Below are positions 375 to 18,518 of a stretch of DNA of 44,975 nucleotides, one piece after another. The position numbers were made by a program, and so were the translations under genes. The first letter of the stretch is position 1. Each line of letters starts with the position of its first letter. Origin of the DNA: a virus; the UHGV virus genome UHGV-0285350; one strand, given 5' to 3'. The notes beneath the pieces were generated by a model. It saw nothing but the letters and a program-made list of their open reading frames with translations, did no database searches and was not told the origin of the DNA.

Positions 375-400
375 TAGGTATTTCGCCACATAAAAAAGTA

Positions 401-426
401 AACGCCGCTACTGCGGCGTTTTTTAC
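401..426. terminator. rho-independent hairpin terminator, usable in both directions (glnS on +, Dam-type gene on -)
   Basis: aacgccgc-tact-gcggcgtt stem-loop followed by tttttt on + strand; on - strand the same hairpin is followed by ctttttt after a 3-nt gap; lies between two convergent stop codons (374 and 423). Confidence 0.6.
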
Positions 427-1328
427 TTCATTATTGCAATTATATCGTTAGCAACTACACGTGTTGACGCCTTGCAGGAAACCGACCGTCTGGCTGCCAT
501 ATGATGTACTTTAAACCCGTTTCCTTCATATAGTTCACGGATGTTTGGCGCACCACTATTTGTTATCACTACCTTAGCGCCGCGCTGGTGGGCTTCCACC
601 AATAGAGATACCAGCCGTTTCTGTTCGTCGAAACGGAAGCTATTTCCTGAATAACTGGTAAACCCTTCTGTATCCGGCAGCGGTTCATACGGCGGATCGC
701 AAAAAATCACATCGCCTTCACCAGCCGCCTCGATGACGCCAGCAAAGTCACCTGATACAAAGGACGTGTTTTTGAGTACGTCATCAGCCAAAAATGCCTC
801 CATCTCTGCATGTGGGAAGTAGGGCGCTTTGTATTTGCCATACCCCACGTTGAACTCGCCATTTTGGTTGTACCGCGTTACGCCATTAAAACAGTGCCGA
901 TTAAGGTACAAAAAGGCGGCAGCATGATGTAGCTGGTCATACTTTCCTCTGTTAAATGCCTCACGCACTTCGAGGTAAGCGTCAGCGTTGTTGTAATTTT
1001 TGAAAAAACTATATGACAGCGTGACGAGCGAATGTCCTTCTCGCTGCAATGTCTGATAGAAGTTAATCAGGTCACCGTTAATATCATTAAGCAGGTTGTG
1101 GCGAAATCCTGCATTCGTAAATACGGAACCGCCACCAACGAATGGTTCTATTAACCGCTTACCGTGTGGTAGATGCTCAAGCACTGTAGGCAATTCTGAG
1201 AATTTACCACCTACCCATTTGAATATCGGACGCTCATATTCATCCGGAGTCCGAATGGTGCGCATATAGCTAATTTCAGCCATCGTATCCTGTTTTTTTA
1301 TGGCTATGCTTGCTATAGATTTACTCAT
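423..1328 (-). CDS. DNA adenine (N6) methyltransferase, Dam / D12 class
   Basis: Translation has FKWVGGK (Dam KWAGGK-type SAM motif) near N-terminus and DPPY catalytic motif; start placed at internal ATG (MSKSIAS...) preceded by AGGGGGTG SD; track ORF extends to 1424 but overlaps the upstream gene. Confidence 0.85.
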   Translation of the reverse strand: MSKSIASIAIKKQDTMAEISYMRTIRTPDEYERPIFKWVGGKFSELPTVLEHLPHGKRLIEPFVGGGSVFTNAGFRHNLLNDINGDLINFYQTLQREGHSLVTLSYSFFKNYNNADAYLEVREAFNRGKYDQLHHAAAFLYLNRHCFNGVTRYNQNGEFNVGYGKYKAPYFPHAEMEAFLADDVLKNTSFVSGDFAGVIEAAGEGDVIFCDPPYEPLPDTEGFTSYSGNSFRFDEQKRLVSLLVEAHQRGAKVVITNSGAPNIRELYEGNGFKVHHMAARRSVSCKASTRVVANDIIAIMK

Positions 1329-2001
1329 AGAGCACCCCCTTATTCGCTTCGAAAACTGCCTTTGCGAATCCATGTGGAGTAGCACTTCGAAAATTAGCCC
1401 TGTCAGGCCCTGGTGGCGCGGCATGGATTCTGTTATCTGGCTTGCCTAATGATTCGTCCATTAGGGCATCAGGCATGACAAAGCCCTGGCCGCTCCAGAG
1501 GCATGTTTTTTTGGTGTAGTTATCTTCCTGACAATATGCAGTGAAGAAGTAAGGGTGAAAGATGTGATCTGGCTTACGCCAGAATGTCGATATTTTGCTG
1601 ACCGGATTTTCAATCATGTACGGACAACCGATCATCTTTGCAATGTCATAACACTGCCAGACAACCTGCATTGCTTTGAACTGGAAAACCGGATCTTTAT
1701 TAGCCTTGTCCGAAAACCAGCGCGCGCCGGAAACAGCCAGGTCAGTACACGGTGGGAACCCGGCCAGAAACACGATGCGCTGCAAATTCTTACGGAGAAA
1801 AGCGTATACTTCATCGCTATCGATGATCGCACTAATACGCGTCAGAACGGCACCTGATTGCATCAGCTCGTCACTGGTCGATAAGTGCTGTGGATCGACG
1901 ATAGCGGCATCGACACCGTATTCCAGCCAGGGGGCAACCATTGCCCCCGTAAAATCACAAAGACTCACAACAAGCGGTCGGTTATTATCGTTCTGCTTCA
2001 C
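1321..2001 (-). CDS. short C5-cytosine-methyltransferase-like protein (motif IV PC and motif VI ENx present; no target-recognition domain; motif I degenerate)
   Basis: [15 protein letters not shown] resembles C5-MTase motif IV (GFPCQxFSxxG) with catalytic Pro-Cys; YMIENPVS resembles motif VI (ENV) about 40 aa later; only about 226 aa. Start uncertain (GTG near 2001 after GGAGG, or ATG near 1941); overlaps rdgC 3' end. Confidence 0.45.
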
Positions 2002-2890
2002 CGCCAATGGCCTCCACCAGCGCGTTAAACAGTGCAGATAATTCGCCCGTAAAGAGCACGAAATCAGCATCAAATCGTTGTGCTACATCCTCCCGGTCGA
2101 TATCGTCGTTCTGGTCATAGAGATCATCACAGAATGTCAGGGCTTTGATACTCATATCATCGTTGACTCTGAACGACGCGCGGTCCATCCAGTTAATTGC
2201 AACGGTCGTAGCTACTTTCCCCGCCTCAATGTGAGACATAATCTCGTCGGACTGTAGATCAACTTTGTTGCAGCGAACGGCACCACCATTATCGAGCAGA
2301 CCCTTTAATGTGGCGTCTTCACCTGCTGTAAATCCGGCAGGGAAGCCGTTTTTAAACCACTCGGTCATTGTAATTTCCAGCGGTTCGCGTGGTGTGAATG
2401 GAATGACAGGCAGGCTGCCGAGCGATTTTCGCAATAAAGCCAGCTGGTCCTCTGCCTTTTTGGCGCTGCTTGCCTCAACGAATACCAGATGGTTGCTGCG
2501 GTCGATCAGGATTTTGGCGAGTGATTTTCTCGTGAAAGCACGAGGAAGAAGAGAGTGAAGCACTTCATCCTTCAGCGAATCTTTTTCGGTCTTCTTCAGC
2601 TTTCTGTCTTGCTCTTCTTCAAGTGTCAGGATTTTTTTCTGTAACTCTTCTTTGAGCACTTGAGAAGGTAGGATTTTTTCCTCTCGTTTATGCTGTATCA
2701 GAAGAAAACCCTGGTATTCATGGGTGAGGTTGTCACCAAGAACGGAGGTCCAACCAGCTTTAGCCATATCCTGAGAACCGCATGGGGTAAACACAAACTT
2801 GCTAAGGGCTGCATTTACTTCTGCAGTATCCCAGCTAACTTCGCGTGAAAGACGATAGATGAAGATATTTTTGAAAGCGACTGATCTCAT
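1985..2890 (-). CDS. rdgC: recombination-associated protein RdgC homologue
   Basis: Full-length similarity to my recollection of enterobacterial RdgC ([14 protein letters not shown]..., [15 protein letters not shown]..., [58 protein letters not shown]); ATG preceded by GGTGAG SD. Confidence 0.85.
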
Positions 2891-2896
2891 GTCTCA

Positions 2897-2940
2897 CCAT
2901 TTGTGTTAGAAAATACATATTAATTATCTAACACAAATGG
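2897..2940. promoter_or_regulatory. perfect 14-bp inverted repeat (ccatttgtgttaga N16 tctaacacaaatgg) directly upstream of rdgC start; candidate operator
   Basis: Read directly from sequence; halves are exact reverse complements; contains the recurring TGTTAGAA/TTCTAACA motif; AT-rich stem so unlikely to be an intrinsic terminator. Confidence 0.4.
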
Positions 2941-2949
2941 GTGCATTTT

Positions 2950-3603
2950 CTATCCTTTCTTGAAATCGAAGTTGCCAGCAGTGGCCTGAAAGGTTCCTCC
3001 TGCCTTGAAAGCTATGTCTCCGTTAGCGGTGACAGCAATATTTTCCCCTTTAACATTGATGTTGTTGGTTGATTTGACGTTAACACTCCCTCCTGCATTC
3101 ACGATTACATCAGCCGGACCAATGATATATATCTGCCCGGACTCATTCATGCCAATCCTTGAGCCTGCTGCCGTATTGGCAATTTCATAGCCGCCACCAG
3201 CAGTTCGTACTTCAAGAATATTGTTGCGGTGAATAACGAAGTCTTTCGTTGCTGAGATTTGGGGGCGGGGAGGTGCTCCATCTACTTCCGGCGGCGTCCA
3301 GCCGTTGCCTTTGCCAGATGCTTCTGGTGCAACGTTTGGAATTCCTCCCGGTGCATCCTGAGCGGCACCAACTATCATTGGGCGTCTGGTGTCTATTCGA
3401 CCGTTAACATCTAAATAAGGAAACTCTACCCAGACCAGGTCACCTTTGACTGTGGGTACAAAAGCGTTTCCGATGGGTAACAGGTATTCCGCCCAGGGTA
3501 GATCGTCATCAGGAACGCCATTCCAGTCAGGTAAAACACGGACTTGAGCACGCATAAGCCCTGCCGGGTGCACAGTTCCAACAATTTGCGCTCTACGCTT
3601 CAT
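2950..3603 (-). CDS. gpV / gp5-type baseplate spike protein (OB-fold N-domain plus Gly/Asn-rich beta-helix-like C-region)
   Basis: N-terminus IVGTVHPAGLMRAQVRVLPDWNGVPDDDLPWAEYLLPIGNAFVPTVKGDLVWVEF fits the phage baseplate-assembly-V OB-fold pattern; C-terminal repeats (IVNAGGSVNVKSTNNINVKGENIAVTANGDIAFKAGG). Confidence 0.6.
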   Translation of the reverse strand: MKRRAQIVGTVHPAGLMRAQVRVLPDWNGVPDDDLPWAEYLLPIGNAFVPTVKGDLVWVEFPYLDVNGRIDTRRPMIVGAAQDAPGGIPNVAPEASGKGNGWTPPEVDGAPPRPQISATKDFVIHRNNILEVRTAGGGYEIANTAAGSRIGMNESGQIYIIGPADVIVNAGGSVNVKSTNNINVKGENIAVTANGDIAFKAGGTFQATAGNFDFKKG

Positions 3604-4580
3604 TTGTTCGGCACTCCCAATATCATTCGTGTTGTGTAGCCTACGCGGTCTTCAAAGTGCGCAACATTTTTTACTATCAGCTTACGGGGCATTGATTCAT
3701 CAATGCGGTTTTCCTGGTCATAGCGGTATACGATAATCTCTATCACCATCCCCGGTTTTATATCAGGATTGCCTGCGACTTCTATATCCATTTTGGGGAC
3801 GAGAGACAGCTGCATATTGCGAAGAGTTTCCATATCAGAGTCGGATATATAACGCACTGGGAGTGAGCTATCGCCATATTCGACGTAGCCATCGGTCATG
3901 GAATACCCAACAAAACGATATTGATTCTTTGCTGTTGTCGCATGTTCCTGTTGGAGTAGGCGCATTTTGGACAAAGTGTATTCTGCTTTAGGGTTATTCC
4001 CCTCGTAGGTAAATGATGGCGTTTGCTTCATCAGATCAGCCAGGGTGTAAAAGTTAAATTCCCCCCGGCATACCCAACATAATGCACCTTTGTCTCGCGC
4101 TATCTCCGAAAGCATTTTTGACGGTTTGTCACCGGCATTCAGATGATATGTAACTGCGCGTTTTAGCACGCTGCTGGTAATTTTAAGCTTGCCGGAATAT
4201 GCCTTGAATATAGCGTCTGGTGTTTTGTTGGTATGTAAATTTGTGCGCGGGGAGGGGATCTTAAACCTGCGCACGTCTTCACTGACAGCAATAACGGTAA
4301 CAACATCACCAGCCAGCATTGCAGACGTAACAAAGAAATCTGTTTTAAAAGTGCCTGCATTACCGTTTGGATCGCCCATTTCAGCCACCAGCGATGCACC
4401 GTATTTGGCTTTCCAGTCATCAATTACGGTGCCGGTAGCGTCATGAATTTCCAGTTTTAGCAAAGGGGCTTTGAGGCTGGTTTTTTCTACATATACTGCG
4501 GTAAAAATCCAGTCTCGTGGCACTTTGTTATCGTTAATGAGCACTGACTGTAGAAAATATTGTTGTAACTCCTGGGCCAC
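3600..4580 (-). CDS. hypothetical protein, possibly baseplate hub (gpD/gp27-like) partner of the adjacent spike
   Basis: 326-aa ORF translationally coupled (overlapping stop/start) to the spike gene; hub assignment is positional inference only. Confidence 0.3.
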   Translation of the reverse strand: MAQELQQYFLQSVLINDNKVPRDWIFTAVYVEKTSLKAPLLKLEIHDATGTVIDDWKAKYGASLVAEMGDPNGNAGTFKTDFFVTSAMLAGDVVTVIAVSEDVRRFKIPSPRTNLHTNKTPDAIFKAYSGKLKITSSVLKRAVTYHLNAGDKPSKMLSEIARDKGALCWVCRGEFNFYTLADLMKQTPSFTYEGNNPKAEYTLSKMRLLQQEHATTAKNQYRFVGYSMTDGYVEYGDSSLPVRYISDSDMETLRNMQLSLVPKMDIEVAGNPDIKPGMVIEIIVYRYDQENRIDESMPRKLIVKNVAHFEDRVGYTTRMILGVPNK

Positions 4581-4583
4581 TTA

Positions 4584-5351
4584 TCACCCCATAGATATCG
4601 AGGTTTCGGTAATAATACGTTTTGCGTCCAACTCCCATGCTGTGATCACGTCTGCAATCACACTTATCGGCGCTTGTGTGGCATAAATACGCTCTTCTCC
4701 AATTGGTGCTGAAACATCCGTAAAGCCGACTTCTTTGGCATCCTGTATCGAGCAAATCAGCGGGACCGGGACACGAACAAGGTGAGTGGTTGCTTCAAAT
4801 TGTGTACCTGTCATCAGGCGAAGCCGTGCGCCCAGCGAATTACACATCAGACTCATGGTCGCTTTATCAGTTGCCATTAACGTGACGTCATACGTCAGAA
4901 TGGCCTGGGTGTATTCCAGTTCTGCTAAAGGCATTCCGGTATCCGGTTCGCAAAAACTGGCTACTTTTTTGCGGTCAATCTGCTGATCATCGTTGATATA
5001 ATTGATATCCATATTGCGTGAGATATTGACCAGGGGGAGAGCATCCCGGTTAATGTTCTGGTTTTCAGGTTTTCTCCCTTGCCCGGCATTTGCGCGACGA
5101 ACTGCTTTAAGAAACTCGATCGCATTGTCGAAACGGGCCACATAGACACGCTCTGCTGGTGGACGATTCAGGAATGACGCAAAGCGTTTTTCTTCCGGCG
5201 CGGGGGCCACCAGTAAGATATCAGAAAAAATGTTGCTGATTAGCGTCGCAAACGCGTTATCCACGTTTTCAAAGCCCGTGGTCTGGAATTTTCCTGTGCG
5301 TGAGGTTTGCCATTCACCTGTTCGCGCCAGGAGGGTTTTATTTGAAGTCAT
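4584..5351 (-). CDS. hypothetical protein (member of leftward 4-gene module)
   Basis: 255-aa ORF, 3-nt gap to downstream gene and overlapping upstream gene; no motif recognised. Confidence 0.5.
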   Translation of the reverse strand: MTSNKTLLARTGEWQTSRTGKFQTTGFENVDNAFATLISNIFSDILLVAPAPEEKRFASFLNRPPAERVYVARFDNAIEFLKAVRRANAGQGRKPENQNINRDALPLVNISRNMDINYINDDQQIDRKKVASFCEPDTGMPLAELEYTQAILTYDVTLMATDKATMSLMCNSLGARLRLMTGTQFEATTHLVRVPVPLICSIQDAKEVGFTDVSAPIGEERIYATQAPISVIADVITAWELDAKRIITETSISMG

Positions 5352-6139
5352 TCGATCACTCCGTTTTGAGTCGTATCAAAATTCCTGGCAGGTATGCAGT
5401 AGTAAAGCGAACCAACATGCTGTGTGCCGTAGCTAAAAATACGGTGCACGTACCACCAGCGGCGCGCTACGCCGTTTACCATCTCTTCATTCCATTCAAG
5501 AATTGAGCCGACGGGGACGTTATTTGCTGCAATACGCAGAATCAGAACATCATCGGTTAAGCCATCCTGCTCACCGTCTGCGTCAATCGCATGGAAAGAG
5601 TCACGCCCGTCAGGGTTATCCAGCACATAAACGATTTCAGGTTCCTGGTAAGTCAGTTCGCGTTGGTTGTTATCCAGTTCGGTGAATGACTCTTCTCCTG
5701 TTTCGTCGCTGACTACCCCATATGTGCCAACATCTGGTCGATATAAGAGAGCCTGAAACGCGTCTGGGCTGGATTCAATAATCAGCATCCAGTCTGCGCG
5801 GATTTGGTCGTTAAAGGCTTTATGCCCGTTATAGCGTGCTTTTAACTGTGGAGTCGGTTCTCTGCCAGCCAGGGAAGATGGAAGTATGGCTATATCTGAT
5901 TCGCCAGCATCCGGAGTAAGGCCACCGTTGCTATCAGCAAAATTATCATGGCTATCAGCTTTGGCGGCGGGTTGCTCTTCCAGAATGCTGAATGAATCCG
6001 AACCGGTATTGCCATGTTCCGGCGCGCCTCCTGCATTCGCTTCAATCGGCGCTGGCGTTTCTCTCTGCGTGCTGTCATGTTCTGACTCCTTACTTGCCAG
6101 GTTTGCATCGTCAGCAAACCATTCGTCAAAACGGCCCAT
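5348..6139 (-). CDS. hypothetical protein with acidic, low-complexity N-terminal half
   Basis: First gene of the leftward module; start placed at ATG (MGRFDEW...) 6 nt after AGGA; track ORF begins at TTG 6151. Confidence 0.5.
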   Translation of the reverse strand: MGRFDEWFADDANLASKESEHDSTQRETPAPIEANAGGAPEHGNTGSDSFSILEEQPAAKADSHDNFADSNGGLTPDAGESDIAILPSSLAGREPTPQLKARYNGHKAFNDQIRADWMLIIESSPDAFQALLYRPDVGTYGVVSDETGEESFTELDNNQRELTYQEPEIVYVLDNPDGRDSFHAIDADGEQDGLTDDVLILRIAANNVPVGSILEWNEEMVNGVARRWWYVHRIFSYGTQHVGSLYYCIPARNFDTTQNGVIE

Positions 6140-6233
6140 AAGCATCCTCAAAGGTCGATCTGTCAGGTATCGAAAGGAAGATTTTCTGGAGATTGTGATT
6201 TTGGATGAAGGAGGGGGAATTCATAAAATGCAC

Positions 6234-6262
6234 TTGCGCACAGTGCAGCGGTGCGCTATAGT
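6234..6262 (+). promoter_or_regulatory. candidate sigma70 promoter for higBA (-35 TTGCGC, 17-bp spacer, -10 TATAGT) overlapped by inverted repeat GCGCAC-N9-GTGCGC
   Basis: Hexamers and spacing read from sequence; palindrome overlapping the spacer is the usual arrangement for antitoxin autorepression. Confidence 0.4.
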
Positions 6263-6301
6263 TATGGCATTCGGTAATCATCACGGAGGATCAAATGACT
6301 A

Positions 6302-6604
6302 ATGACCAAAAAAATTAACATAAAGGATTTCAGGGATGCGTGGCTTGATGATTTTTTTGAATTTTCAACACCACATAGAAAGATACCTCCTGATATTCAT
6401 ATGACATTGTCACGGAAGTTGGACATTATCAATGCCGCAACTACCTGTAAGGATTTAAGATCACCACCAGGTAATCGGTATGAGGAACTGTCAGGGAAGC
6501 TAAATGGCTATTCATCAGTAAGGGTGAATAAGCAATATAGGTTAATTTTTAAGTGGGTTAACGGAAAGGCCGAGGACTTGTATCTCGACCCTCACAAATA
6601 CTAA
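6302..6604 (+). CDS. higB: type II toxin HigB (RelE/ParE superfamily)
   Basis: C-terminal LSGKLNGYSSVRVNKQYRLIFKWVNGKAEDLYLDPHKY aligns with HigB LKGDREGYWSITVRANWRITFQFINGDAYILNYEDYH; toxin-first order with HTH antitoxin directly downstream. Confidence 0.8.
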   Translation: MTKKINIKDFRDAWLDDFFEFSTPHRKIPPDIHMTLSRKLDIINAATTCKDLRSPPGNRYEELSGKLNGYSSVRVNKQYRLIFKWVNGKAEDLYLDPHKY

Positions 6605-6674
6605 AACAGATACCCGGTTACGGACCGGGTTCTGACCAGAGTCCACTTAATACGCACGCTAGTAAGGGCAAAAA

Positions 6675-7013
6675 ATGAAACAGGCAACCAGAAAACCGAC
6701 GACCGTAGGTGATATCCTGCTGTACGAATACCTGGAGCCGTTAGAGCTGAAGATCAACGAGTTGGCAGAAATACTTCATGTTCATCGTAACACCGTAAGT
6801 GCTCTTGTTAATAATAATCGTAAGCTAACGATGGATATGGCATATCGCCTGGCAAAAGCATTCGATACTTCTGTAGATTTTTGGATTAATCTTCAGACCG
6901 CAGTAGACCTGTGGGAAGTCGAAAATGATATGCGCGTTCAGGAAGAGTTAAGTCGTATCAATACTGCTGAAAAATTTATTTCTCAGCGGAACCTGAATAA
7001 AAAAGCAGCCTGA
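6675..7013 (+). CDS. higA: antitoxin HigA (XRE-family HTH, VapI type)
   Basis: N-terminal HTH LAEILHVHRNTVSALVNNNRKLTMDMAYRLAKAFDTSVDFWINLQ typical of HigA/VapI antidote proteins; immediately downstream of higB. Confidence 0.8.
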   Translation: MKQATRKPTTVGDILLYEYLEPLELKINELAEILHVHRNTVSALVNNNRKLTMDMAYRLAKAFDTSVDFWINLQTAVDLWEVENDMRVQEELSRINTAEKFISQRNLNKKAA

Positions 7014-7069
7014 TATAGTAAAACACATACAAAAAGCCCACTTAGCAAGTGGGCTTTCCTTTGTAATTA

Positions 7070-7372
7070 ATGAACATTAAACCTATCCGTACAGAACAAG
7101 ATTATGAGGCCGCACTGCGTGCGGTCGAACCGATGTTCGATAACGAGGAGTACGAGAAAAAACATTACCCAATTGAGCCACCATCACCTATTGAGGCCAT
7201 TAAATTCCGTATGGAACAGCAAGGGCTGACCGTGAAGGATCTGGAACCGGCGATTGGTAAGTCAAATCGTGTTTACGAAGTGCTAAATGGGACACGAAAT
7301 TTGACGTTACCTATGATTCGCCGTTTACATTCCCAGTTTGGCATTCCTCTTGAAAGCTTGGTTGGTATTTGA
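7070..7372 (+). CDS. second HTH (XRE-type, C-terminal HTH) antitoxin-like regulator
   Basis: C-terminal LTVKDLEPAIGKSNRVYEVLNGTRNLTLPMIRRLHSQFGIPLESL resembles HigA-family antitoxins with C-terminal HTH; no cognate toxin directly upstream. Confidence 0.6.
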   Translation: MNIKPIRTEQDYEAALRAVEPMFDNEEYEKKHYPIEPPSPIEAIKFRMEQQGLTVKDLEPAIGKSNRVYEVLNGTRNLTLPMIRRLHSQFGIPLESLVGI

Positions 7373-7434
7373 GTTTGGCGGTCTGGATGACCGCTATTTT
7401 CATAAAATAGATATTAGAAATCACGGTAGTTTAT

Positions 7435-8163: not shown

Positions 8164-8196
8164 AAGCCTAGCCTAGGCAGCTAGGCTATGTGTGGT

Positions 8197-9390: not shown

Positions 9391-9712
9391 TTTCTATCTC
9401 CGGTTCCGCGCTCGCGTAATCACGGATCTTGTTCCTCAGCCATGCCACATCAGGAAGAGTTAACGTGGTCCCGGCGGGCATTTCTTCCATTTCTGACTCA
9501 TGGCCCACCAGCACCCGGAATACCCAGCGCAAATCTGCATTGCCATACGCCCTGTAGGCTGCAAGGTCTGAACGATATACTTCATCAATCTTTATCGTGT
9601 ACTGGAAATTATCAGAGTGATACTCCGATACCCGCTTAATCATTTCCTGGTGAAACAGCGCACGAAAAATATCGTCTTCAATGTACCTATCGTCGAGTCT
9701 GCTATAGCCCAT
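9383..9712 (-). CDS. hypothetical protein (upstream partner of SWIM protein, overlapping start/stop)
   Basis: 109-aa ORF whose stop overlaps the start of 8197..9390; no motif recognised. Confidence 0.5.
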   Translation of the reverse strand: MGYSRLDDRYIEDDIFRALFHQEMIKRVSEYHSDNFQYTIKIDEVYRSDLAAYRAYGNADLRWVFRVLVGHESEMEEMPAGTTLTLPDVAWLRNKIRDYASAEPEIENA

Positions 9713-9905
9713 AACAAAGCCTCTCAGTCATAACCTGGGGGAAACTGTATGCAGGGTGTGAAATGCGAGAAACAGACAGGCCACCAGTTCAGGGGGATGT
9801 GGTTCATAAATCCCCTCACTGGTGACAAGTGACTTTCATTAATCTTTATGCGGGGGCCAGCTTCATTTGCTGGCATTAGATTAAAAATTAAACGGAGTGA
9901 ATGAC

Positions 9906-10040
9906 ATGGATGTTATCTTCGAATTATTAATGCTAATTGATCTGTTTATGAACGCTTCATTGACCACTCAAATACTCGCGTCAATATTTTTGTTACTCTT
10001 CTACCTGGTATTGAGGGAGTTAACAAAGCTACTAATGTGA
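9906..10040 (+). CDS. possible small hydrophobic peptide (44 aa, one TM-like segment)
   Basis: ATG after GGAGTG; translation MDVIFELLMLIDLFMNASLTTQILASIFLLLFYLVLRELTKLLM*; AT-rich; below the track's 60-aa cutoff, coordinates from my own reading. Confidence 0.3.
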   Translation: MDVIFELLMLIDLFMNASLTTQILASIFLLLFYLVLRELTKLLM

Positions 10041-10694
10041 TCAAAGTATCACGGTATCTTCATCAACTTCTTTCCCAGCCAGTGACTTTGGCTGGGAGGT
10101 GCCTGCTTTAACTTTTTCATGCCCAATAATGGACAGGAACGAAGCGAGTATGCCTGTTTTTTGCTCTTTCTCGACTGTACCGGTCATCTGCTCTACATAA
10201 TCTGCACTGGCAACGTTGTGGTATACGGTCGCGTAGCAACACAGGATCATCAGAATATGCTCCGGCCTGATATCCTGCCAGTTCACCCTGTAGACTTCTT
10301 CTCCGTTACCGTTGTATTCGGTATCAACGATAGAGTCGGGGATTTCGAAAGCACCTTTGTTATTTTGCGGCAGGGATAATAGTTTCTGGAGTTTTAACTC
10401 TCTGTATCTTTCCATCCCAACGATGATTGCTGCTCTACCATCGGCATGACGGGTCTTGAGAGTCACCTGGCTTGCTCCGGTGCCAGCGGAGATCGTTGGC
10501 GTAATTTCGTCTACTAGAACCTTAAATTTGCTTTTCCGCAGGGCTGCTATAGCTGGAGGAATTTTTTGCTTTTGCTCCAATGCTGACGCGGGAAGGGGTT
10601 TTACTTCGTTAATAATGAGAGCACCGTCTTTCAGTATTGCAGTGAGCATTTGAGGCTTGCTGGTGGTCAGGCTGAATATTGCGATCTTTTCCAT
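10041..10694 (-). CDS. hypothetical protein
   Basis: Start placed at ATG (MEKIAIFSL...) preceded by GGAGGAAGG SD; track ORF extends to 10736. Confidence 0.55.
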   Translation of the reverse strand: MEKIAIFSLTTSKPQMLTAILKDGALIINEVKPLPASALEQKQKIPPAIAALRKSKFKVLVDEITPTISAGTGASQVTLKTRHADGRAAIIVGMERYRELKLQKLLSLPQNNKGAFEIPDSIVDTEYNGNGEEVYRVNWQDIRPEHILMILCCYATVYHNVASADYVEQMTGTVEKEQKTGILASFLSIIGHEKVKAGTSQPKSLAGKEVDEDTVIL

Positions 10695-10721
10695 TTTCCT
10701 TCCTCCACGGATGACGGATAC

Positions 10722-10745
10722 AAAAAAAGGCCGCACATGGCGGCC
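10722..10745 (-). terminator. intrinsic-terminator-like hairpin on minus strand (ggccgc-acatg-gcggcc followed by T7) just upstream of the 10041..10694 gene
   Basis: Stem-loop and adjacent A7 on + strand (T7 on -) read from sequence. Confidence 0.35.
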
Positions 10746-10962
10746 TGCTTTGGCGTTATGACTCCCTACCGCGCTTCGGCTGAAAGTTAATCGTCAAAAG
10801 AACCTTCAACGGGAGCCGTTAGCGCGATGGATTATGTGCAGTTTGTGATTTCCAAAATAGTGTCAACCACTTTTTGTGGATTTTATTTTTTGACCGAAAT
10901 TTGGCCTAAATCATGTTGATGTAGTTAATTGTTTTTATAACATAAAACTTCATTTTGTTTAC

Positions 10963-11586
10963 ATGAAGGATGGTGTAGTGAAGTTAAGGGTTTTAGGGGC
11001 CGCGCTCGCGGCTATGTTGGGATGCGTATCTGCTAATACTGCCAATGCAACTGCGTTACCTGCACAATTCAGGGCAGGGCAGCAGGTTATGAATAACGCT
11101 GGTGGGGATCATTCACAAGCGGCCATTATGGACTTTTGCAAGAGGGAGGGCATTCCATTACGGCCTGTTGGAACTCAGTTTATTGGTAAAACTGACTTTT
11201 GCGTTTTTGCATATACAGCATATCTGACGGGCAAAGCTATAACAAAAACAGGTTACTCAACCAAAGATACTCTTTCCAGATTAAGTCAGGGATGGCAGCA
11301 ATTCGAAGTGTATCGCCAGCAAGGATTAGGTGAGTTATTGCAACCACTTTTTATGCTTGCATTGGTGCCCGAGGGGCAGCAATTTTTGGTTAAAAAGGGA
11401 ATGCTTCGCCAAAGTGATATTGCCGGGTTCGATAGCATGATGGCTTATGAGCGCAAACTAACCGAGCAGCGAAATAAAAAACCATCTGCTTCATGTGTGC
11501 AAAGTAAAACAGCAGAATACAGTGCAGTAGCCGGGCCTTTAGCCAAACAAATGGCAGAGCAATGGTGTAAAAAATACGGGCAATAA
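10963..11586 (+). CDS. hypothetical secreted protein (N-terminal signal peptide)
   Basis: N-terminus KLRVLGAALAAMLGCVSANTANA is signal-peptide-like; true start may be GTG at about 10978. Confidence 0.55.
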   Translation: MKDGVVKLRVLGAALAAMLGCVSANTANATALPAQFRAGQQVMNNAGGDHSQAAIMDFCKREGIPLRPVGTQFIGKTDFCVFAYTAYLTGKAITKTGYSTKDTLSRLSQGWQQFEVYRQQGLGELLQPLFMLALVPEGQQFLVKKGMLRQSDIAGFDSMMAYERKLTEQRNKKPSASCVQSKTAEYSAVAGPLAKQMAEQWCKKYGQ

Positions 11587-11606
11587 GTTACGCAGCGGAG
11601 GCAGAA

Positions 11607-11999
11607 TTGAAAAGATTGGCTATTGCTTTACTGGCGTCTTTCCCTTTGATCGCGAGCGCCGGAAATTTACAAGTTAAGTGCGGTCGGTTTGATATAAAAA
11701 TCTATCCGGATGCCATATTTCTGAATGGGAATAAGGTTGATAACGCACACCGAAAAACTGAATCTGACGTAATGAGCTATGTGTTCCAGGAGTATGCGGA
11801 GATGGGGGGAACTTATACGCTGTACTCGCTGGATGTTCCTTCTCGCGGTGATATGACATTATCCCATCAATGGCAGAACGCCGATGGAGAAGCTCTGCGC
11901 GAGGTTAAAATAGAAAAATGTGGCACTTTCCATTCTTTTAAAGGGAAAGCGCCAAATGTTAAATCTGTGCTTGAAAAACAGCGCACAGGTGAGCTTTAA
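11607..11999 (+). CDS. hypothetical secreted/periplasmic protein (signal peptide)
   Basis: MKRLAIALLASFPLIASA signal peptide with AxA cleavage motif; no other motif recognised. Confidence 0.55.
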   Translation: MKRLAIALLASFPLIASAGNLQVKCGRFDIKIYPDAIFLNGNKVDNAHRKTESDVMSYVFQEYAEMGGTYTLYSLDVPSRGDMTLSHQWQNADGEALREVKIEKCGTFHSFKGKAPNVKSVLEKQRTGEL

Positions 12000-12307
12000 G
12001 CCCCTTTAATCACGGAGATGTCGTTCCCCGTACGATAACGACGGGGAACGGAATTATCCATCAGGTCACGAATTGCTCCCGCTTCACGTAGTTCCTCTGT
12101 TTCCCTGTATCTATTTGTCACCAGATCCAGGCTGGCAATGACTTTGTGCCGGTCATTCGGCATAGCCAATTTTTCTGCCATTATCATCAGCGACAAATCT
12201 TCATCCAGAAGAATTTGATACCAGTTTTTTGATAGTTCTACTTCCCTTATGAGACTGAAACGTCGCTGGATTGTTGCAGCAGAGTAAGTGAAATCTATTT
12301 TCTTCAT
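11996..12307 (-). CDS. hypothetical protein
   Basis: 103-aa ORF; stop overlaps the end of the upstream convergent gene. Confidence 0.45.
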   Translation of the reverse strand: MKKIDFTYSAATIQRRFSLIREVELSKNWYQILLDEDLSLMIMAEKLAMPNDRHKVIASLDLVTNRYRETEELREAGAIRDLMDNSVPRRYRTGNDISVIKGA

Positions 12308-12369
12308 CGTGCGGAGAATCCGGTTATTTAGTAGTTAAAGCCCCGACGACCCCGGGTAACCCTACACCT

Positions 12370-12543
12370 TCAGGCTTTATGCTTGGTTGATTTCTTCTTG
12401 GTTTGCTTGCAGGCGTAGGCCATTGCTTTAGCTTTCACTTCATCCAGTTTACCAGTAATCACTTCTTTTCCGAGAGTGACAAACCAGTCATAGCAACCGC
12501 CAGTAATGTTCTTGATTTGAAAGTTGAGGTAGCGAACAGTCAT
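12370..12543 (-). CDS. possible small basic protein (57 aa, Lys-rich C-terminus)
   Basis: ATG preceded by GGGGGTG SD; translation MTVRYLNFQIKNITGGCYDWFVTLGKEVITGKLDEVKAKAMAYACKQTKKKSTKHKA*; not in track (<60 aa). Confidence 0.35.
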   Translation of the reverse strand: MTVRYLNFQIKNITGGCYDWFVTLGKEVITGKLDEVKAKAMAYACKQTKKKSTKHKA

Positions 12544-12874
12544 TTTGACACCCCCGGCGCGAGTAAAGAATGCAGATTATCGCGTGAGTGGTGGACGACG
12601 AGTGATGGGAAAAGACTGTAGTTGTTCATAGTGTAGTGACTCCTTGCTTTCGGAGCCGCCATCGACTGTTCCACGGTCTGGTGGCGGCGCAATAAAGGCT
12701 GGAACACCGTGAGTCAACGGGGGCTTTTCAGCCACCTATATTGCACCGCCATTGGTATGGCGGCAGCAATCATACGAAAAACTAAATAGTTTGTCTCAAA
12801 AAGTTGACCGGTGTGCCAATCGGTAGTGAATGTACATCGGAGCATTTTTCAATTCAACTTAAAATGTTAGAAAA

Positions 12875-13453
12875 CTAATTTATCAATTCAATCGCCATCT
12901 GATACAACGTCATTTCATCGGCATTGTGCCGCATGAAATCTGCTTTTCCGCCTATTTTTCCATCAGCATGAACAGGGACCAGCCAGGGATATTGTTCTCG
13001 GACCTCGGCTGGCGCTGCGTACTGGTGGTGCCATTTACACAAAGGGAGGACATATTTATGCGCGTTCTCTGCCGTTCTCCCGAAGATATGGTGCAGGGAT
13101 ACCACTGGGCTATGTTGCCCGTGAATATGGCAGGCAATGCAGGGGAGAGTACCGATAGCGGTCTGTATCCGGCGTTCATCGGCTGTGAGTGATCTGCCCT
13201 TCAGGCCGCGTGACGTGCGTGTTTTTTTGGACGGAGTGGATACAGCTTTCTCTTTTCTCCGCTGGTCATATTGCTTTGCTTTTTCAATTCTCTTTTGCCG
13301 ATATTCAGGCGATGCGGCTTTTTCTCTCGCTCGTTGCTGCTGGCGTTGAGCTTGTTGAAGGCGCTTTGCCCTTTGTTCCTCTCGCCAGGCTGGGTCAGCC
13401 AATTTTTGCATGGCTTTTTGTCTCTGTTTCTCCCAATAGCTCTGTTTCTGCAT
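12875..13453 (-). CDS. Ref-like (phage P1 recombination enhancement function) HNH-type nuclease with basic low-complexity N-terminal region
   Basis: N-terminal about 90 aa Arg/Lys/Gln-rich; C-terminal LPCIACHIHGQHSPVVSLHHIFGRTAENAHKYVLPLCKWHHQ has Cys/His spacing of an HNH zinc-finger nuclease; architecture matches P1 Ref as I recall it. Confidence 0.55.
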   Translation of the reverse strand: MQKQSYWEKQRQKAMQKLADPAWREEQRAKRLQQAQRQQQRAREKAASPEYRQKRIEKAKQYDQRRKEKAVSTPSKKTRTSRGLKGRSLTADERRIQTAIGTLPCIACHIHGQHSPVVSLHHIFGRTAENAHKYVLPLCKWHHQYAAPAEVREQYPWLVPVHADGKIGGKADFMRHNADEMTLYQMAIELIN

Positions 13454-13484
13454 GATGGCTGCCTCTTACTTTTCAGCTATTTTT

Positions 13485-13535
13485 CTATGATTGATCAAAA
13501 TAGTTAGATATTCAAAATTGATTTTCTAACACAAA
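13485..13535. promoter_or_regulatory. divergent control region with repeated TTCTA/TTAGA half-sites including TTTTCTAACA
   Basis: ttttcta...tagttagata...attttctaacacaaaac read from sequence between the leftward Ref-like gene and the rightward early operon. Confidence 0.35.
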
Positions 13536-13725
13536 ACATTAATATCATTTCTGATAACTGTTTGGAGGACATGATGCTTATAGCTTTAAGTGCGATCCAC
13601 CAGCCATCTGTGAATGAGATTGGCCTGTTCTATGTGTTGTTTTTCGGGGCGTTGGCGCTACTTGAGCTTGGTATTGAGCTTTTCGCAGTGCTTATGTTTT
13701 GCGTCACGATTTTGGGGAAATTTTG

Positions 13726-14337
13726 ATGGTGAAACGTGTTTTGAAAATTTACATCGCGGGGCCGATGACTGGTTATCCAGATTACAACCGTGCGGCGTTT
13801 AATGCGAAAGCGAGCGAGTTGATGGCTGAAGGGCATATCGTTCTGAATCCAGCTGTGTTACCTGGTGGCCTTTGTCAGAGTGAATACATGGATATTTGCC
13901 TGGCAATGGTGCGTTCTGCTGATGCGATCTACTTGCTCAATCGATGGGAGGAATCGATTGGTGCTCGTGCAGAGCACGCGCTGGCTGAAAAGCTGGGGCT
14001 GACTGTAATTTATGAGTCACCAACCAACATTGAATGCCAGGTTGCTCCGCATATTTACCGGGAACTGGTCAATGCACTGCGTGATATCGCTGCTGTATAT
14101 CACGGCACAGAACAGCTTCGTGAGCGTTTAGCCCATACCATTTTCTATTACCTGTCTTTATCTCATGAGCACAAGCTCCGCCAGAAGGTAATGATCAAAT
14201 TTATCATGAGGTTATCGAAATCCCTGGCAAACGCCGATCCAAAGAATCCATTACCGAAAGAGGCAATGAATTACCTGAAATCCTGCAACGTTGTTTCTGA
14301 AGATGGCGTTCTTTTGGTTAGAAGGAGTTCTGCGTGA
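13726..14337 (+). CDS. DUF4406-like (nucleoside 2-deoxyribosyltransferase-like fold) protein with about 100-aa C-terminal extension
   Basis: KIYIAGPMTGYPDYNRAAFNAKASELMAEGHIVLNPA matches the YIAGPM(T/S)G signature; start at ATG 13726. Confidence 0.55.
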   Translation: MVKRVLKIYIAGPMTGYPDYNRAAFNAKASELMAEGHIVLNPAVLPGGLCQSEYMDICLAMVRSADAIYLLNRWEESIGARAEHALAEKLGLTVIYESPTNIECQVAPHIYRELVNALRDIAAVYHGTEQLRERLAHTIFYYLSLSHEHKLRQKVMIKFIMRLSKSLANADPKNPLPKEAMNYLKSCNVVSEDGVLLVRRSSA

Positions 14338-14366
14338 GCTGGCGGGGATGGGGAAGGGCAGAAATC

Positions 14367-14651
14367 ATGATACTCCGCCAGTGCGCCGGGACTATGACAG
14401 TCGAGAGTATTGGGAGGCTGATCGGGCGTACCGGTAGTGCTGTCAGAACCAAAGCGCGGCAACTGCGGATCTGCATGATTCTGAAAGGAGACTTTCACCC
14501 GTCAGCCAAATACCGGCAGGGCGATATAGAACTGGCACGGCAGCTTCATCGGTGTGGTGTTCCCCGCCGTGAGATCGCGGAAAAACTCGAAATGCCCCTG
14601 GGCATGATTAATCAGTACGTTTATTTCGAAAGGAGAGTGTATGAAGTCTGA
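14367..14651 (+). CDS. hypothetical small protein with two HTH-like segments (putative DNA-binding)
   Basis: Start placed at ATG after GGGAAGGG; track ORF starts at GTG 14334 overlapping the previous stop. Confidence 0.4.
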   Translation: MILRQCAGTMTVESIGRLIGRTGSAVRTKARQLRICMILKGDFHPSAKYRQGDIELARQLHRCGVPRREIAEKLEMPLGMINQYVYFERRVYEV

Positions 14652-15192
14652 AGGTTTAACGCCCGCACAACTGGCAGAGCGTAACGCTGAGTATGTAACG
14701 GAAATTTCCCGACTTGAGAAAGCGTGTGCTGCGCTGGCGGCGGAGAATGCTGGGCTGAAGTCTGAAGCTCCACTTGGTGCCATCGAGAATGGCAGAGCGT
14801 TTGCAGACCGTTTAGAGAATTACCAGTTCGAGTGTGAAGGCGGAAACCTAAACATGTGCAGTGATTGGCAGGAGTTTCGCCGTTGCTTCGAGTATTTATC
14901 TGAATGGGCAATGCATAGCCAGACAGAGCACCCAGCCACCGATGCTTTCCTGGCTGAAGTGAAGACTGAAGCACGCAAGGAGGGCGCTTACTTTGTGGCG
15001 AACAGAATGCTGGCTGCCTGGGAAGCTGGTTTTATTGATGATACTGCGAAGAACGCCGCGGATATTGCCCGGATGATTCTTACCTCTACTGAGTTTATGG
15101 CTAATGCGCCGGAAGGCGATTTTGACCGCTCATTCTCTGATGGCGTTCTCGAAGATATCGCCGCCCAGCTTGGAAAAGGAGGCAAACAGTGA
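14641..15192 (+). CDS. hypothetical protein, paralogue A (coiled-coil N-term; conserved C-terminal domain shared with 16304..17002)
   Basis: Shares ALEAKCAALAAENA(G/R)LK and PATDAFLAEV(K/R)(T/A)EAR(K/N)EG blocks and C-terminal GKGGKQ/RKGSSQ with the downstream paralogue. Confidence 0.6.
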   Translation: MKSEGLTPAQLAERNAEYVTEISRLEKACAALAAENAGLKSEAPLGAIENGRAFADRLENYQFECEGGNLNMCSDWQEFRRCFEYLSEWAMHSQTEHPATDAFLAEVKTEARKEGAYFVANRMLAAWEAGFIDDTAKNAADIARMILTSTEFMANAPEGDFDRSFSDGVLEDIAAQLGKGGKQ

Positions 15193-15377
15193 GTAACCGT
15201 TTTTACATGATGTGCTTGCGTGAAACTGTGGGTAATAACGCCTCATTCCATTGCCATAACGGCAATGGTTACAGTTCTTGGCGCGGCGGAAGCGTTTATG
15301 ATGCAGAAGCATGGCGAGATGGCTATGAAGCAGGGAAAACGCCTGTCGAAGTATATTGTGATGAGTGGGGTGGGTGA
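15189..15377 (+). CDS. small Cys/His-containing protein (62 aa)
   Basis: GTG start overlapping upstream stop (GTGA); stop overlaps methyltransferase ATG (TGAATG); residues C9, HCH, C57. Confidence 0.4.
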   Translation: MSNRFYMMCLRETVGNNASFHCHNGNGYSSWRGGSVYDAEAWRDGYEAGKTPVEVYCDEWGG

Positions 15378-16106
15378 ATGATTTGCCTTCACAACGCAGA
15401 CTGCTTTGACATCTTTCCGCAAATCGCCAGCAACTCCGTAGATCTTGTATGTGCCGATATTCCATATGGAACAACTCGGTGTCGCTGGGATTCTGTTCTC
15501 GACCTGCAGTTGATGTGGAAGCAGATTTACCGTATTTCCAAACCGAACGCTGCAATTGTTCTGTTTTCCGCTCAGCCTTTTACCAGCGTGCTGGTCAACA
15601 GCAATCTTCGTGACTGGAAAACAGAATGGATTTGGGAAAAGCCACACGCGACAGGATTTTTGAACGCAAAAAAACAACCTTTAAGAGCGCATGAAAATAT
15701 TGAAGTTTTTTACAGAAAGCAACCGACATACAACCCACAGATGACGTATGGGCACGCCAGAAAAACCTCAACAAGAGGTAGGCTGAATACTGATGTATAT
15801 GGCGATGCGCTGAAAAAGGTCGTTTACGATTCAACAAGTCGCTATCCGAGAGACGTGCAGAAATTCTCCAGCGACAAGCAAAAGCAGGCACTTCATTCAA
15901 CACAAAAGCCACTGGCTCTGGTGAGATATCTGATTGAAACATATAGCAATATTGGCGACACAGTGTTGGATTTCACTATGGGTAGCGGAACTACTGGCGT
16001 TGCGTGCCAACAATCAGGACGCCGATTTACAGGAATAGAAAAAGATCCAGAAATTTTTCGTATCGCATTAGAGCGTATGGGAATTAAACAGGAGCATGCA
16101 GCATGA
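15378..16106 (+). CDS. DNA methyltransferase, N6-adenine/N4-cytosine beta class
   Basis: Motifs DIPY (catalytic DPPY variant), HSTQKP, and FTMGSGTTGVA (SAM-binding FxGSGTT) in beta-class order. Confidence 0.85.
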   Translation: MICLHNADCFDIFPQIASNSVDLVCADIPYGTTRCRWDSVLDLQLMWKQIYRISKPNAAIVLFSAQPFTSVLVNSNLRDWKTEWIWEKPHATGFLNAKKQPLRAHENIEVFYRKQPTYNPQMTYGHARKTSTRGRLNTDVYGDALKKVVYDSTSRYPRDVQKFSSDKQKQALHSTQKPLALVRYLIETYSNIGDTVLDFTMGSGTTGVACQQSGRRFTGIEKDPEIFRIALERMGIKQEHAA

Positions 16107-16124
16107 TTTTTGTGGAGGCAACCA

Positions 16125-18492: not shown

Positions 18493-18518
18493 TCAAATCA
18501 TTTACGCACTCAAATCAC

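Follow-up and report, generated by a model that had tools for sequence, protein, structure and literature searches.

Solitary DNA methyltransferase genes of three classes in a D6-like plasmid prophage

Three methyltransferase genes in the D6-like part of the window

The window analyzed here, a stretch of viral DNA of 44,975 nucleotides, is not one single element. Positions 1 to ~21,980 are a D6-like (P1-family) plasmid prophage, and the remainder, from about 21.8 kb, is Mu-like late-gene DNA. An earlier note on this DNA had described three methyltransferase genes "in one element." Based on profile matches, motifs, and fold, the three genes (423..1328, 1321..2001, and 15378..16106) are real, and each belongs to a different class; all three are located inside the D6-like part, but the 45-kb window as a whole also holds the Mu-like DNA. 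Most of the 15.7-kb span that runs from the first of them to the third is taken up by unrelated genes for tail, toxin-antitoxin, and immunity functions. Using tblastn with five methyltransferase queries, we found no further methyltransferase genes in the window.

The gene at 423..1328 on the minus strand encodes a 301-aa N6-adenine DNA methyltransferase of the Dam family (D12, alpha-class) that is predicted to be GATC specific. The protein matches the D12 class in Pfam (PF02086, E=2.1e-56) and the Dam subfamily (TIGR00571, 249 bits at a cut-off of 115); it also aligns end to end with the E. coli Dam structure (201 bits) and contains both FVGGG and DPPY. Residues aligned with K9, N120, and R124 of EcoDam are identical, and those aligned with Y119, L122, and P134 are F, V, and G, respectively. 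Identity is 99.3% with phage D6 orf63 and drops to 66.8% with the C-terminal (Dam) half of P1 Dmt; the top match of the protein in PADLOC is "orphan methyltransferase." A longer ORF reaches 1424. An AAGGGGG ribosome-binding site precedes the ATG at 1328, and this start codon overlaps the stop codon upstream of it as ATGAGTAA; in alignments the ~30 N-terminal residues of the protein correspond to the linker of fused Dmt-type proteins. The dam product very probably makes GATC methylation.

The second gene (1321..2001, minus strand, GTG start) encodes a 226-aa minimal C5-cytosine DNA methyltransferase ("mini-Dcm," phrog_757), here referred to as mini-C5. The protein had no match in Pfam, NCBIfam, PADLOC, or PDB sequences, and its nearest folds in a fold comparison are C5 methyltransferases. 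The predicted catalytic residues are Cys85 (FPPC), Glu131 (ENPV), and Lys164/Lys165, and FPPC and ENPV are invariant among 30 diverse family members and 120 close matches. Thus, the label "C5-like" used in the earlier note is correct, although the protein falls outside PF00145. The slot for the target-recognition domain comprises only about 35 residues, and motif I is non-canonical (LCDxTGxM versus FxGxG). In one family member, an intein is inserted exactly at the FPPC cysteine, an insertion point typical of active-site residues. Mini-C5 is 99.1% identical to D6 orf64.

Mini-C5 shares phrog_757 with the Dcm of phage K42; members of both types are solitary phage genes encoding about 220–236 aa. 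The "Dcm-like" gene of Drexlerviridae is 36% identical to mini-C5 over 93% of the length (E=3e-39). Wild-type K42 Dcm, which triggers retron Ec86 and has the site CCWGG, was shown experimentally to produce 5-methylcytosine on retron msDNA, with a catalytic mutant as the inactive control. The positions equivalent to C82, E128, K175, and K176 of K42 Dcm are conserved in mini-C5, and the mini-C5 catalytic residues align with those mutated in the inactive control. K42-type proteins carry a 14-residue insertion that mini-C5 lacks. Unlike the Drexlerviridae gene, mini-C5 sits in a temperate phage-plasmid, where it is coupled to Dam and RdgC. Divergence from the Drexlerviridae gene is greatest at about residues 170–205, the expected seat of specificity. 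Moreover, from motif VIII to the C-terminal helix, a short region is unrelated in sequence between K42-type proteins and mini-C5, and the specificity of mini-C5 may therefore differ from CCWGG. By analogy, mini-C5 may methylate CCWGG, as K42 Dcm does; however, with 36% identity and the divergence in residues 170–205, this site is not transferable from one protein to the other.

The third gene (15378..16106, plus strand) encodes a 242-aa beta-class DNA methyltransferase (PF01555, E=3.5e-29; phrog_67, E=4e-70; PADLOC MTase_II, E=3.9e-73) that is predicted to modify N6-adenine or, less likely, N4-cytosine. The motif order is that of the beta class, with motif IV (DIPY) toward the N-terminus and motif I (FTMGSGTTG) toward the C-terminus; the solved relatives, all of them only distantly similar, are DpnA, M.MboIIA, M.BceJIV, M.RsrI, and CcrM (E=1e-14 to 1e-10). 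DIPY takes the place of the canonical DPPY in 114 of 120 close homologues, but since all of these are at least 73% identical, this conservation is weak evidence of activity. A 100% identical protein (P0121) is encoded in early-left operons of lambdoid prophages, adjoining Ead/Ea22 genes. The gene is absent from D6, with similarity between the window and D6 ending at 14,759; it is missing from most D6-like plasmids, and the plasmids that cover at least 80% of the query number only 12. It is a sporadic, mosaic accessory passenger of the lambdoid "ea-region" type, and this distribution means that the three genes do not form a designed set. Overall, the three genes encode solitary, SAM-dependent DNA methyltransferases that are probably active.

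Operon organization and operator-like sites

Mini-C5 and dam follow hrdC (1985..2890, minus strand), the first gene of operon 1, which encodes an RdgC-family recombination-associated protein (PF04381, E=6e-103) and whose D6 counterpart, orf65, is annotated "similar to P1 hrdC." The overlaps between hrdC and mini-C5 (17 nt) and between mini-C5 and dam (8 nt) suggest translational coupling. The operon spans 2952 to 400 on the minus strand, and its end is marked by a bidirectional intrinsic-terminator-like hairpin at 400..421 (9-bp stem, six G-C pairs, T-runs on both strands) located between the 3′ ends of glnS (69..374, plus strand) and dam. The 59-bp gap upstream of hrdC contains, within 2897..2952, a promoter-like site (TAGAAA-18-GATAAT, 2952..2923, minus strand), which is overlapped by two operator-like 14-nt sites, CCATTTGTGTTAGA, at 2897..2910 and 2927..2940 that form a perfect inverted pair. 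At least 80% of the hrdC/mini-C5/dam cassette is present in 97 plasmids from E. coli, Salmonella, and Shigella, and an 85-kb contig with only 63% identity has the genes in the same order. Mini-C5 and Dam also occur naturally fused, in a protein of 563 aa (P0241), and some D6-like plasmids have, at the identical locus, a P1-type C5–Dam fusion joined to a D6-type Dam half. Together with the overlapping stop and start codons, these arrangements speak for a functional link between mini-C5 and Dam.

The beta-class gene is the sixth gene of operon 2, which begins at about 13,540 on the plus strand. Based on ORF coordinates, Pfam, and PHROG, the five preceding genes (13562..15377, plus strand) are tightly packed or overlapping, with no convincing terminator between them, and encode a 54-aa ORF, a DUF4406 protein, a D5-like regulator fragment, an Ead/Ea22-like protein, and a 62-aa ORF. 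An operator-like site, ATTGATTT-TCTAACACAAA, is located at 13513..13546 on the plus strand (core 13525..13535), where ref (12875..13453, minus strand) and the rightward operon diverge. This site is enclosed by a promoter-like stretch, TTGATT-16-TAATAT, which is our own reading and was not listed by the promoter scan.

We base the operator assignment on the count of the 11-mer and on positional analogy with P1. The exact 11-mer TCTAACACAAA occurs three times in the window versus 0.6 times expected, and 2 of 100 shuffles reached three. In D6, the core TCTAACACAAA with the ATTnATTT flank recurs upstream of both icd/ant and the c1-like repressor gene. A search for the literal P1 operator consensus gave zero matches. 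Because operator-like sites lie upstream of both operons, all three methyltransferase genes are probably silent in lysogens, as is known for prophage beta-class methyltransferases such as M.EcoGII, and a lysogen-versus-cured methylome would probably be blank even with three active enzymes.

Restriction partners and the role of methylation

The earlier note had also claimed that no restriction endonuclease gene is adjacent, and scans of both flanks using Pfam, PADLOC, and PHROGs bear this out. The neighbors are GlnS, RdgC/HrdC, Ead/Ea22-like proteins, DUF4406, and small ORFs; no neighbor matched restriction-enzyme models, here or in the other genomic contexts examined, and all three methyltransferases are solitary in every one of these contexts. 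A cryptic restriction-modification or defense system, in which one methyltransferase is the modification half and the nuclease an unrecognized neighbor, could draw on the neighbors annotated without function (14641..15192, 15189..15377, 16110..16307, and 16184..17002), on the HNH-type proteins of the region (Ref; a DUF968/HNH protein at 18590..19585), and on an HNH domain fused to one distant mini-C5 homologue. However, the unannotated neighbors are Ead/Ea22-like proteins that are common in lambdoid phages, neither the identical beta-class gene nor the mini-C5 homologues have constant neighbors across contexts or a nuclease among them, and Ref, a RecA-dependent nuclease whose known role is a different one, is encoded on the opposite strand at a distance of 2 kb. 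We regard this reading as very improbable and already largely refuted.

The anti-restriction role proposed in the earlier note is plausible for the trio by analogy, given that the genes are solitary and that a widespread view in reviews has phages use such solitary methyltransferases to shield exported DNA from restriction. For Dam, it is neither the sole nor the best-evidenced reading because the role documented for the P1 homologue is methylation at pac: P1 cannot package its DNA unless pac is methylated at GATC, and it cannot do without dmt in dam– hosts. The "multiple specificities" that the note sets against several host restriction systems are uncertain, since GATC and perhaps CCWGG are marks that Dam and Dcm of E. 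coli K-12 already make. In the BASEL study, methyltransferase genes of Drexlerviridae had no simple link to restriction resistance.

It is a serious possibility, though we would not favor it, that the methyltransferases, above all those of the hrdC/mini-C5/dam cassette, serve the phage's own DNA transactions (pac licensing and packaging, timing of replication and recombination with HrdC, avoidance of mismatch-repair nicking) with restriction protection at most a by-product. The P1 precedent points this way, as does the RecA-modulating RdgC homologue that always accompanies the cassette (in P1, D6-like plasmids, and the 63%-identity relative). In addition, marks duplicating those usual in the host would add little protection among dam+ dcm+ enterobacteria, and D6 already has a full Dar anti-restriction set. 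By contrast, members of the mini-C5 family occur widely, with neither Dam nor RdgC, in lytic Drexlerviridae and in lambdoid nin regions, which fits general protection better, and we know of no role for 5-methylcytosine in P1-type packaging. The pac-like GATC cluster of D6 is also weak: pacA holds the densest GATC cluster within the first 50 kb of the D6 genome, but with no compelling statistics, and the TGATCA/G hexamer arrays of P1 are not reproduced. It is unlikely that any of the three genes is a passenger without activity. The beta-class gene may have hitch-hiked in as the remnant of a lambdoid ea-region module, in line with its sparse distribution and non-canonical motif IV, and mini-C5, missed by the profile databases and having neither a normal target-recognition domain nor a normal motif I, may be a degenerate methyltransferase-fold protein that does not methylate DNA or acts on another substrate. 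Yet neither ORF is disrupted, and each is part of a very large family in which the catalytic and SAM-pocket residues are strictly conserved; one mini-C5 family member is experimentally active, and the intein at the catalytic Cys and the Dam fusions argue for a working enzyme.

We consider it likely that the genes belong to two early operons, each preceded by an operator-like site of the type present at the immunity genes of the phage, and that their products mark phage DNA for both packaging and protection. In this model, the repressor would leave upon induction or infection, and Dam and mini-C5 would be made together. By analogy with P1, GATC methylation of rapidly replicating phage DNA by Dam would license pac cleavage and packaging, and it would also block enzymes that cut unmethylated GATC. 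Mini-C5 would deposit 5-methylcytosine, possibly at CCWGG, which would guard against EcoRII-type restriction but also expose the phage to detection by retron Ec86. The beta-class gene, having come with the lambdoid "ea22" module, would most likely add one more protective mark before packaging.

Relation to P1, D6, and beta-class orphans

A methyltransferase trio in a plasmid prophage is ordinary and largely annotated already for the P1/D6 phage group. Operon 1 is the D6-lineage counterpart of the C1-repressed uhr-hrdC-dmt operon of P1, with hrdC, a cytosine-C5 module, and a Dam module in the same slot and order. In P1, Dmt is one bifunctional protein of 754 aa (PF00145 C5 plus Dam), whereas here two overlapping genes are present; the N-terminal half of P1 Dmt has no detectable sequence similarity to mini-C5, which is fold-related to the P1 C5 domain and fills the same slot as a separate gene. 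Operon 1 lacks uhr. The C1 operator Odmt lies upstream of the P1 operon in the place equivalent to the inverted pair before hrdC, but the operator-like sequence of operon 1 differs from P1 Odmt/Op68 (C1). In the published D6 genome, dam and mini-C5 are already annotated, as orf63 ("site-specific DNA-adenine methylase") and orf64 ("putative DNA-cytosine methylase"), at the same coordinates relative to glnS and hrdC; unlike the window, D6 has neither the beta-class gene nor the Mu-like continuation. The PF01555 beta-class architecture of 15378..16106 is that of M.EcoGI/GII (silent prophage orphans), M.BceJIV, DpnA, M.MboIIA, and CcrM, and the order of motif IV, recognition region, and motif I is common to it and the solved enzymes. 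The likeness to M.EcoGI/GII extends to the lack of a restriction partner and to a prophage operon expected to be off in lysogens; however, M.EcoGII has 349 aa and the canonical DPPY versus 242 aa and DIPY here, and nothing suggests that the enzyme encoded in the window is non-specific.

Assignment of the three methyltransferase genes

The earlier note had claimed that the window carries three distinct methyltransferase genes. This is correct: profiles and motifs assign each gene to its own class, and no fourth methyltransferase gene was found in the window.

The product of dam (423..1328, minus strand) matched PF02086 with 191.9 bits (cut-off, 22; E=2.1e-56) and TIGR00571 with 249.3 bits (cut-off, 114.85), and aligned over its whole length with the crystal structure of E. 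coli Dam (201 bits). Its SAM motif I, EPFVGGGSVF (around residue 60), precedes its catalytic motif IV, CDPPYEPL (around residue 210), which is the alpha-class order; both align with the same motifs of E. coli Dam. For the chromosomal-Dam equivalog NF008152, it scored 240 bits, which is below the cut-off of 441 and places it in a phage subfamily rather than with the host chromosomal dam. Based on Dam-DNA structures, we take the GATC-contacting residues of E. coli Dam to be K9, Y119, N120, L122, R124, and P134; at the aligned positions, K9, N120, and R124 are identical in the window protein, while Y119, L122, and P134 are replaced by F, V, and G, respectively. The protein is 99.3% identical to the orf63 product of Escherichia phage D6, a plasmid prophage of the P1 family, and shares 66.8% identity with the C-terminal half of P1 Dmt, which methylates GATC according to the P1 record (statements on the D6 and P1 genomes rest on GenBank annotations). 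The contact residues and the 67% identity to the GATC-specific P1 Dmt are compatible with GATC, short of proof, and the well-supported reading of this sequence is that dam encodes a GATC-specific m6A enzyme.

The mini-C5 gene (1321..2001, minus strand) encodes a 226-aa protein, while canonical bacterial C5 methyltransferases have 320 aa or more. It had no matches in Pfam (E<=0.01, i.e., also none to PF00145), NCBIfam, or PADLOC, and none in the PDB, including every solved C5 methyltransferase, using either the single sequence or a 30-member family profile. Mini-C5 was recognized solely via PHROGs, fold comparison, and motif inspection. The match to the phrog_757 "DNA methyltransferase" profile is strong (E=4.4e-78, residues 2-224), and the family comprises 7,911 homologues in a 90%-identity database, mostly stand-alone proteins of ~210-255 aa, that fall into 2,571 clusters at 50% identity. 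Because the libraries miss mini-C5, methyltransferase censuses of phages and plasmids relying on Pfam, NCBIfam, or PADLOC under-count this family of >2,500 clusters. In an alignment of 30 diverse members, LCDxTG...PW, DPQH, ID, FPPCT, ENPV, YxKxT.W, and RSATPxGF are invariant, and their order fits the expectation of a class-I SAM pocket first and the Pro-Cys and Glu-Asn-Val motifs of cytosine-C5 enzymes after it. Mini-C5 itself has a class-I methyltransferase fold with the catalytic Pro-Cys (motif IV) followed by Glu-Asn-Val (motif VI), and its motif I is LCDFTGAM, not the canonical FxGxG. From YTKKTCLW to RSATP there are only ~35 residues, with no sizeable target-recognition domain between motifs VIII and IX. 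Individual homologues include one with a Hint/LAGLIDADG intein exactly at the catalytic Cys of FPPC (P0343), a natural 563-aa mini-C5-Dam fusion (P0241), and one with a C-terminal HNH domain (P0296). We conclude that mini-C5 is a genuine, probably active minimal C5-cytosine methyltransferase and not a PF00145 member.

The mini-C5 protein is related (36% identity, E=3e-39) to a "Dcm-like" gene of 711 bp in the Drexlerviridae phage JakobBernoulli. A preprint on retron Ec86 reports that the product of the 711-bp dcm gene of the related phage K42 puts 5mC on msDNA, that the CCWGG motif of the msDNA is required, and that the C82A/E128A/K175A/K176A mutant of K42 Dcm is inactive. Via our alignment with the JakobBernoulli gene, which is bridged to K42 by the same gene length and residue numbering, these four residues correspond to Cys85, Glu131, Lys164, and Lys165 of mini-C5, all of which are invariant. 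The presumed specificity stretch of ~35 residues is unrelated to the K42 type, and the CCWGG site is, therefore, not transferable to mini-C5.

The 242-aa product of the beta-class gene (15378..16106, plus strand) matched PF01555 with 102.8 bits (cut-off, 26.7; E=3.5e-29; residues 21-231). Motif IV precedes motif I, as in beta-class enzymes, with DIPY at 27-30 and FTMGSGTTG at 199-207. DIPY has Ile in place of the first Pro of the canonical (D/N/S)PP(Y/F/W), as do 114 of 120 close homologues, and Asp at position 1 of the catalytic tetrapeptide favours adenine over N4-cytosine. The protein aligns over its full length to M.MboIIA and M.BceJIV, the latter an orphan enzyme that recognizes GTWWAC. 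Because all its solved relatives (DpnA, M.MboIIA, M.BceJIV, M.RsrI, and CcrM) are distant (E=1e-14 to 1e-10), its recognition site cannot be inferred from them. A non-specific methylase of the M.EcoGII type is unsupported: M.EcoGII, which is set apart here by description only, has 349 aa and a canonical DPPY. The gene is absent from phage D6, and only 12 plasmids contain at least 80% of it. Lambdoid prophages encode a 100% identical protein in their early-left operon, with recombination genes on one side and Ead/Ea22 genes on the other. The beta-class gene is a mosaic accessory gene that is common in prophages; D6-type phage-plasmids sporadically acquire such extra methyltransferases from lambdoid phages.

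A PAPS-reductase-like gene (20286..21164, in the region 19,590..21,164), possibly in the same rightward operon as the beta-class gene, follows a DUF968/HNH gene and a phrog_874 gene of unknown function. Its product matches PF01507, SspD (E=1e-13), phrog_424, and, weakly, BrxP and DndC. The gene has no counterpart in D6, is found in several D6-like plasmids, and may be a further DNA-modification candidate.

Composite make-up of the window

All three methyltransferase genes fall within the D6-like part of the window. Positions 1 to 14,759 are 98.9% identical to phage D6 (megablast), and the similarity to D6-like plasmids from E. coli and Salmonella extends to ~21,980. Based on matches, ~21,795 to 44,975 is the late region of a Mu-like prophage with genes for GemA, Mor, lysis, DUF1804, TerL, portal, head, sheath, tape measure, and baseplate proteins. 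This part is 94% identical to a plasmid-borne copy in E. albertii and has a G+C content of 0.55-0.59 versus 0.47 in the D6-like part. Within the join region (21,161..22,100), the joint lies inside ~0.6 kb (21,359..21,980) that is common to both element types, around an Ead/Ea22-like gene. There are no Mu-type transposase or repressor genes ahead of the joint in the window, and the D6/Mu junction was found in no complete E. coli genome. The window combines D6-like phage-plasmid DNA with the late half of a Mu-like phage and could be either a real recombinant or an assembly chimera.

We note that in p1RM9976 of E. albertii, which is the closest Mu-like relative, a gene for a 246-aa DPPY beta-class methyltransferase is located between DUF1804 and terL (7465..8205); at the corresponding spot in the window (26,517..26,552), there is no gene. 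In the D6-like part, a low-G+C islet (0.39; 6,302..8,163) between tail-gene operons encodes the toxin-antitoxin pair HigB/HigA along with an HTH regulator and a membrane-like protein (242 aa) of unknown function. Convergent with dam, at 69..374, lies the 3' end of glnS; such a glutaminyl-tRNA synthetase gene on a phage is a known peculiarity of D6-like plasmids.

Predicted regulation, orphan status, and possible functions

Upstream of hrdC, the RdgC-family gene that precedes mini-C5 and dam, a promoter-like site lies in a 59-bp gap, and two copies of CCATTTGTGTTAGA overlap this site as a perfect inverted pair. The core 11-mer is also present between ref and the rightward operon holding the beta-class gene; its three copies in the window compare with 0.6 expected, and three were reached in 2 of 100 shuffles. 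Sites for the motif ATTnATTT-TCTAACACAAA are found at hrdC (inverted pair) and at ref/the rightward operon and, in D6, directly upstream of the gene for the c1-like repressor and of icd/ant. The literal P1 C1 operator consensus, the 17-mer ATTGCTCTAATAAATTT, had zero matches with up to three mismatches allowed; the operator idea rests on a different, related motif that resembles this consensus. In P1, the C1 operator Odmt is located upstream of uhr-hrdC-dmt, as the operator-like pair is upstream of hrdC in the window. P1 C1 operators are also located at ref, in the immI region, and at c1. From the shared operator-like motifs and the parallel to Odmt, we expect all three methyltransferases to be switched off in the lysogen and produced soon after induction; the same pattern has been reported for M.EcoGI and M.EcoGII, two prophage enzymes that are silent in lysogens. 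Because of this likely repression, lysogen methylomes would miss these enzymes, and the comparison of a lysogen with a cured strain is probably uninformative here.

The earlier note had also described the three genes as orphans without an adjacent restriction endonuclease, and their orphan status is real. Their neighbours (the glnS 3' end, RdgC/HrdC, Ead/Ea22-like proteins, DUF4406, a D5-like regulator fragment, and small phage ORFs) match no restriction model, and thus no type II restriction-modification system was found around the three genes. Homologues in the other genomes examined are likewise solitary: one lies in an RdgC/mini-C5/Dam cassette on a contig of 85 kb, another in a Cronobacter prophage with ninB on one side and ninE/F on the other, and a third in the early region of a Pseudomonas prophage.

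The anti-restriction function that the note had proposed is only partly supported. Reviews give protection from restriction as the general explanation for phage orphan methyltransferases, and such protection by the C5 and beta-class enzymes is plausible. For Dam, the documented precedent is P1, which depends on GATC methylation of pac for its packaging and cannot do without dmt in dam- hosts. D6 encodes homologues of PacA and PacB, and the densest GATC cluster in its first 50 kb lies in pacA (D6 3,573..3,849), with five GATC in 132 bp and four copies of ATGATC, two per orientation. We rejected a P1-like pac site at this position because the cluster is not statistically compelling and lacks hexamer arrays of the P1 type; the cluster is a possible Dam-dependent pac site. 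A systematic study of Drexlerviridae found no simple correlation between methyltransferase genes and restriction resistance. D6-type phages also carry Dar anti-restriction proteins. Moreover, Dcm of the K42 type triggers retron Ec86 (preprint), which is a cost, and phages with such a homologue aboard may be detectable by this retron. Site avoidance was rejected as a clue to specificity: the GATC and CCWGG counts in the D6-like part (1..21,800) are uninformative, with only a mild GATC depletion (70 versus 103 expected using a Markov model), while in the Mu-like part (21,800..44,975) GATC is strongly depleted (25 versus 105) and CCWGG is also low.

For two of the three genes, phage D6 has annotated counterparts with 99% identity, and the third is common in prophages, which makes the finding ordinary. 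Its overall significance is modest, and the current understanding of phage orphan methyltransferases is unchanged.

The hrdC/mini-C5/dam cassette and P1 Dmt

In the minus-strand cassette, hrdC and mini-C5 overlap by 17 nt and mini-C5 and dam by 8 nt (ATGAGTAA), each gene has a Shine-Dalgarno sequence, and the operon ends at a predicted bidirectional terminator (400..421). The cassette is kept in 97 plasmids.

Mini-C5 has no similarity to the N-terminal (C5) half of P1 Dmt by BLASTP or hhalign (probability 0.2), and we, therefore, dropped an origin by splitting of P1 Dmt in favour of non-orthologous displacement. At the cassette locus, pRHB39-C20_3 and some other D6-like plasmids encode a 762-aa fusion of the P1 type in which the Dam half and the linker are of the D6 type. 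Thus, two C5 modules, which have a fold in common and no detectable sequence similarity, alternate upstream of Dam in split or fused form. This alternation is an argument that selection favours placing the two marks jointly. We consider it unlikely, yet worth stating, that mini-C5 and Dam would work as a single unit, equivalent to P1 Dmt and made of two subunits. In this reading, a C5 module without detectable sequence similarity to that of P1 has displaced the canonical one at the same locus, and the forms found among relatives are split, fused (P0241), or swapped back (pRHB39-C20_3). A relaxed or Dam-guided specificity might follow from the near absence of a target-recognition domain in mini-C5 and, if true, would result in broad cytosine protection and not simple CCWGG methylation.

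Phage-plasmids of the D6 type, common among E. coli, Salmonella, and Shigella, are confirmed to carry a conserved cassette for Dam and cytosine-C5 methylation that is equivalent to P1 Dmt. The order of hrdC, mini-C5, and dam in the window is the same as in the uhr-hrdC-dmt operon of P1, whereas P1 Dmt is a single 754-aa protein with a PF00145 C5 domain and Dam, and the window encodes the two modules in separate genes.
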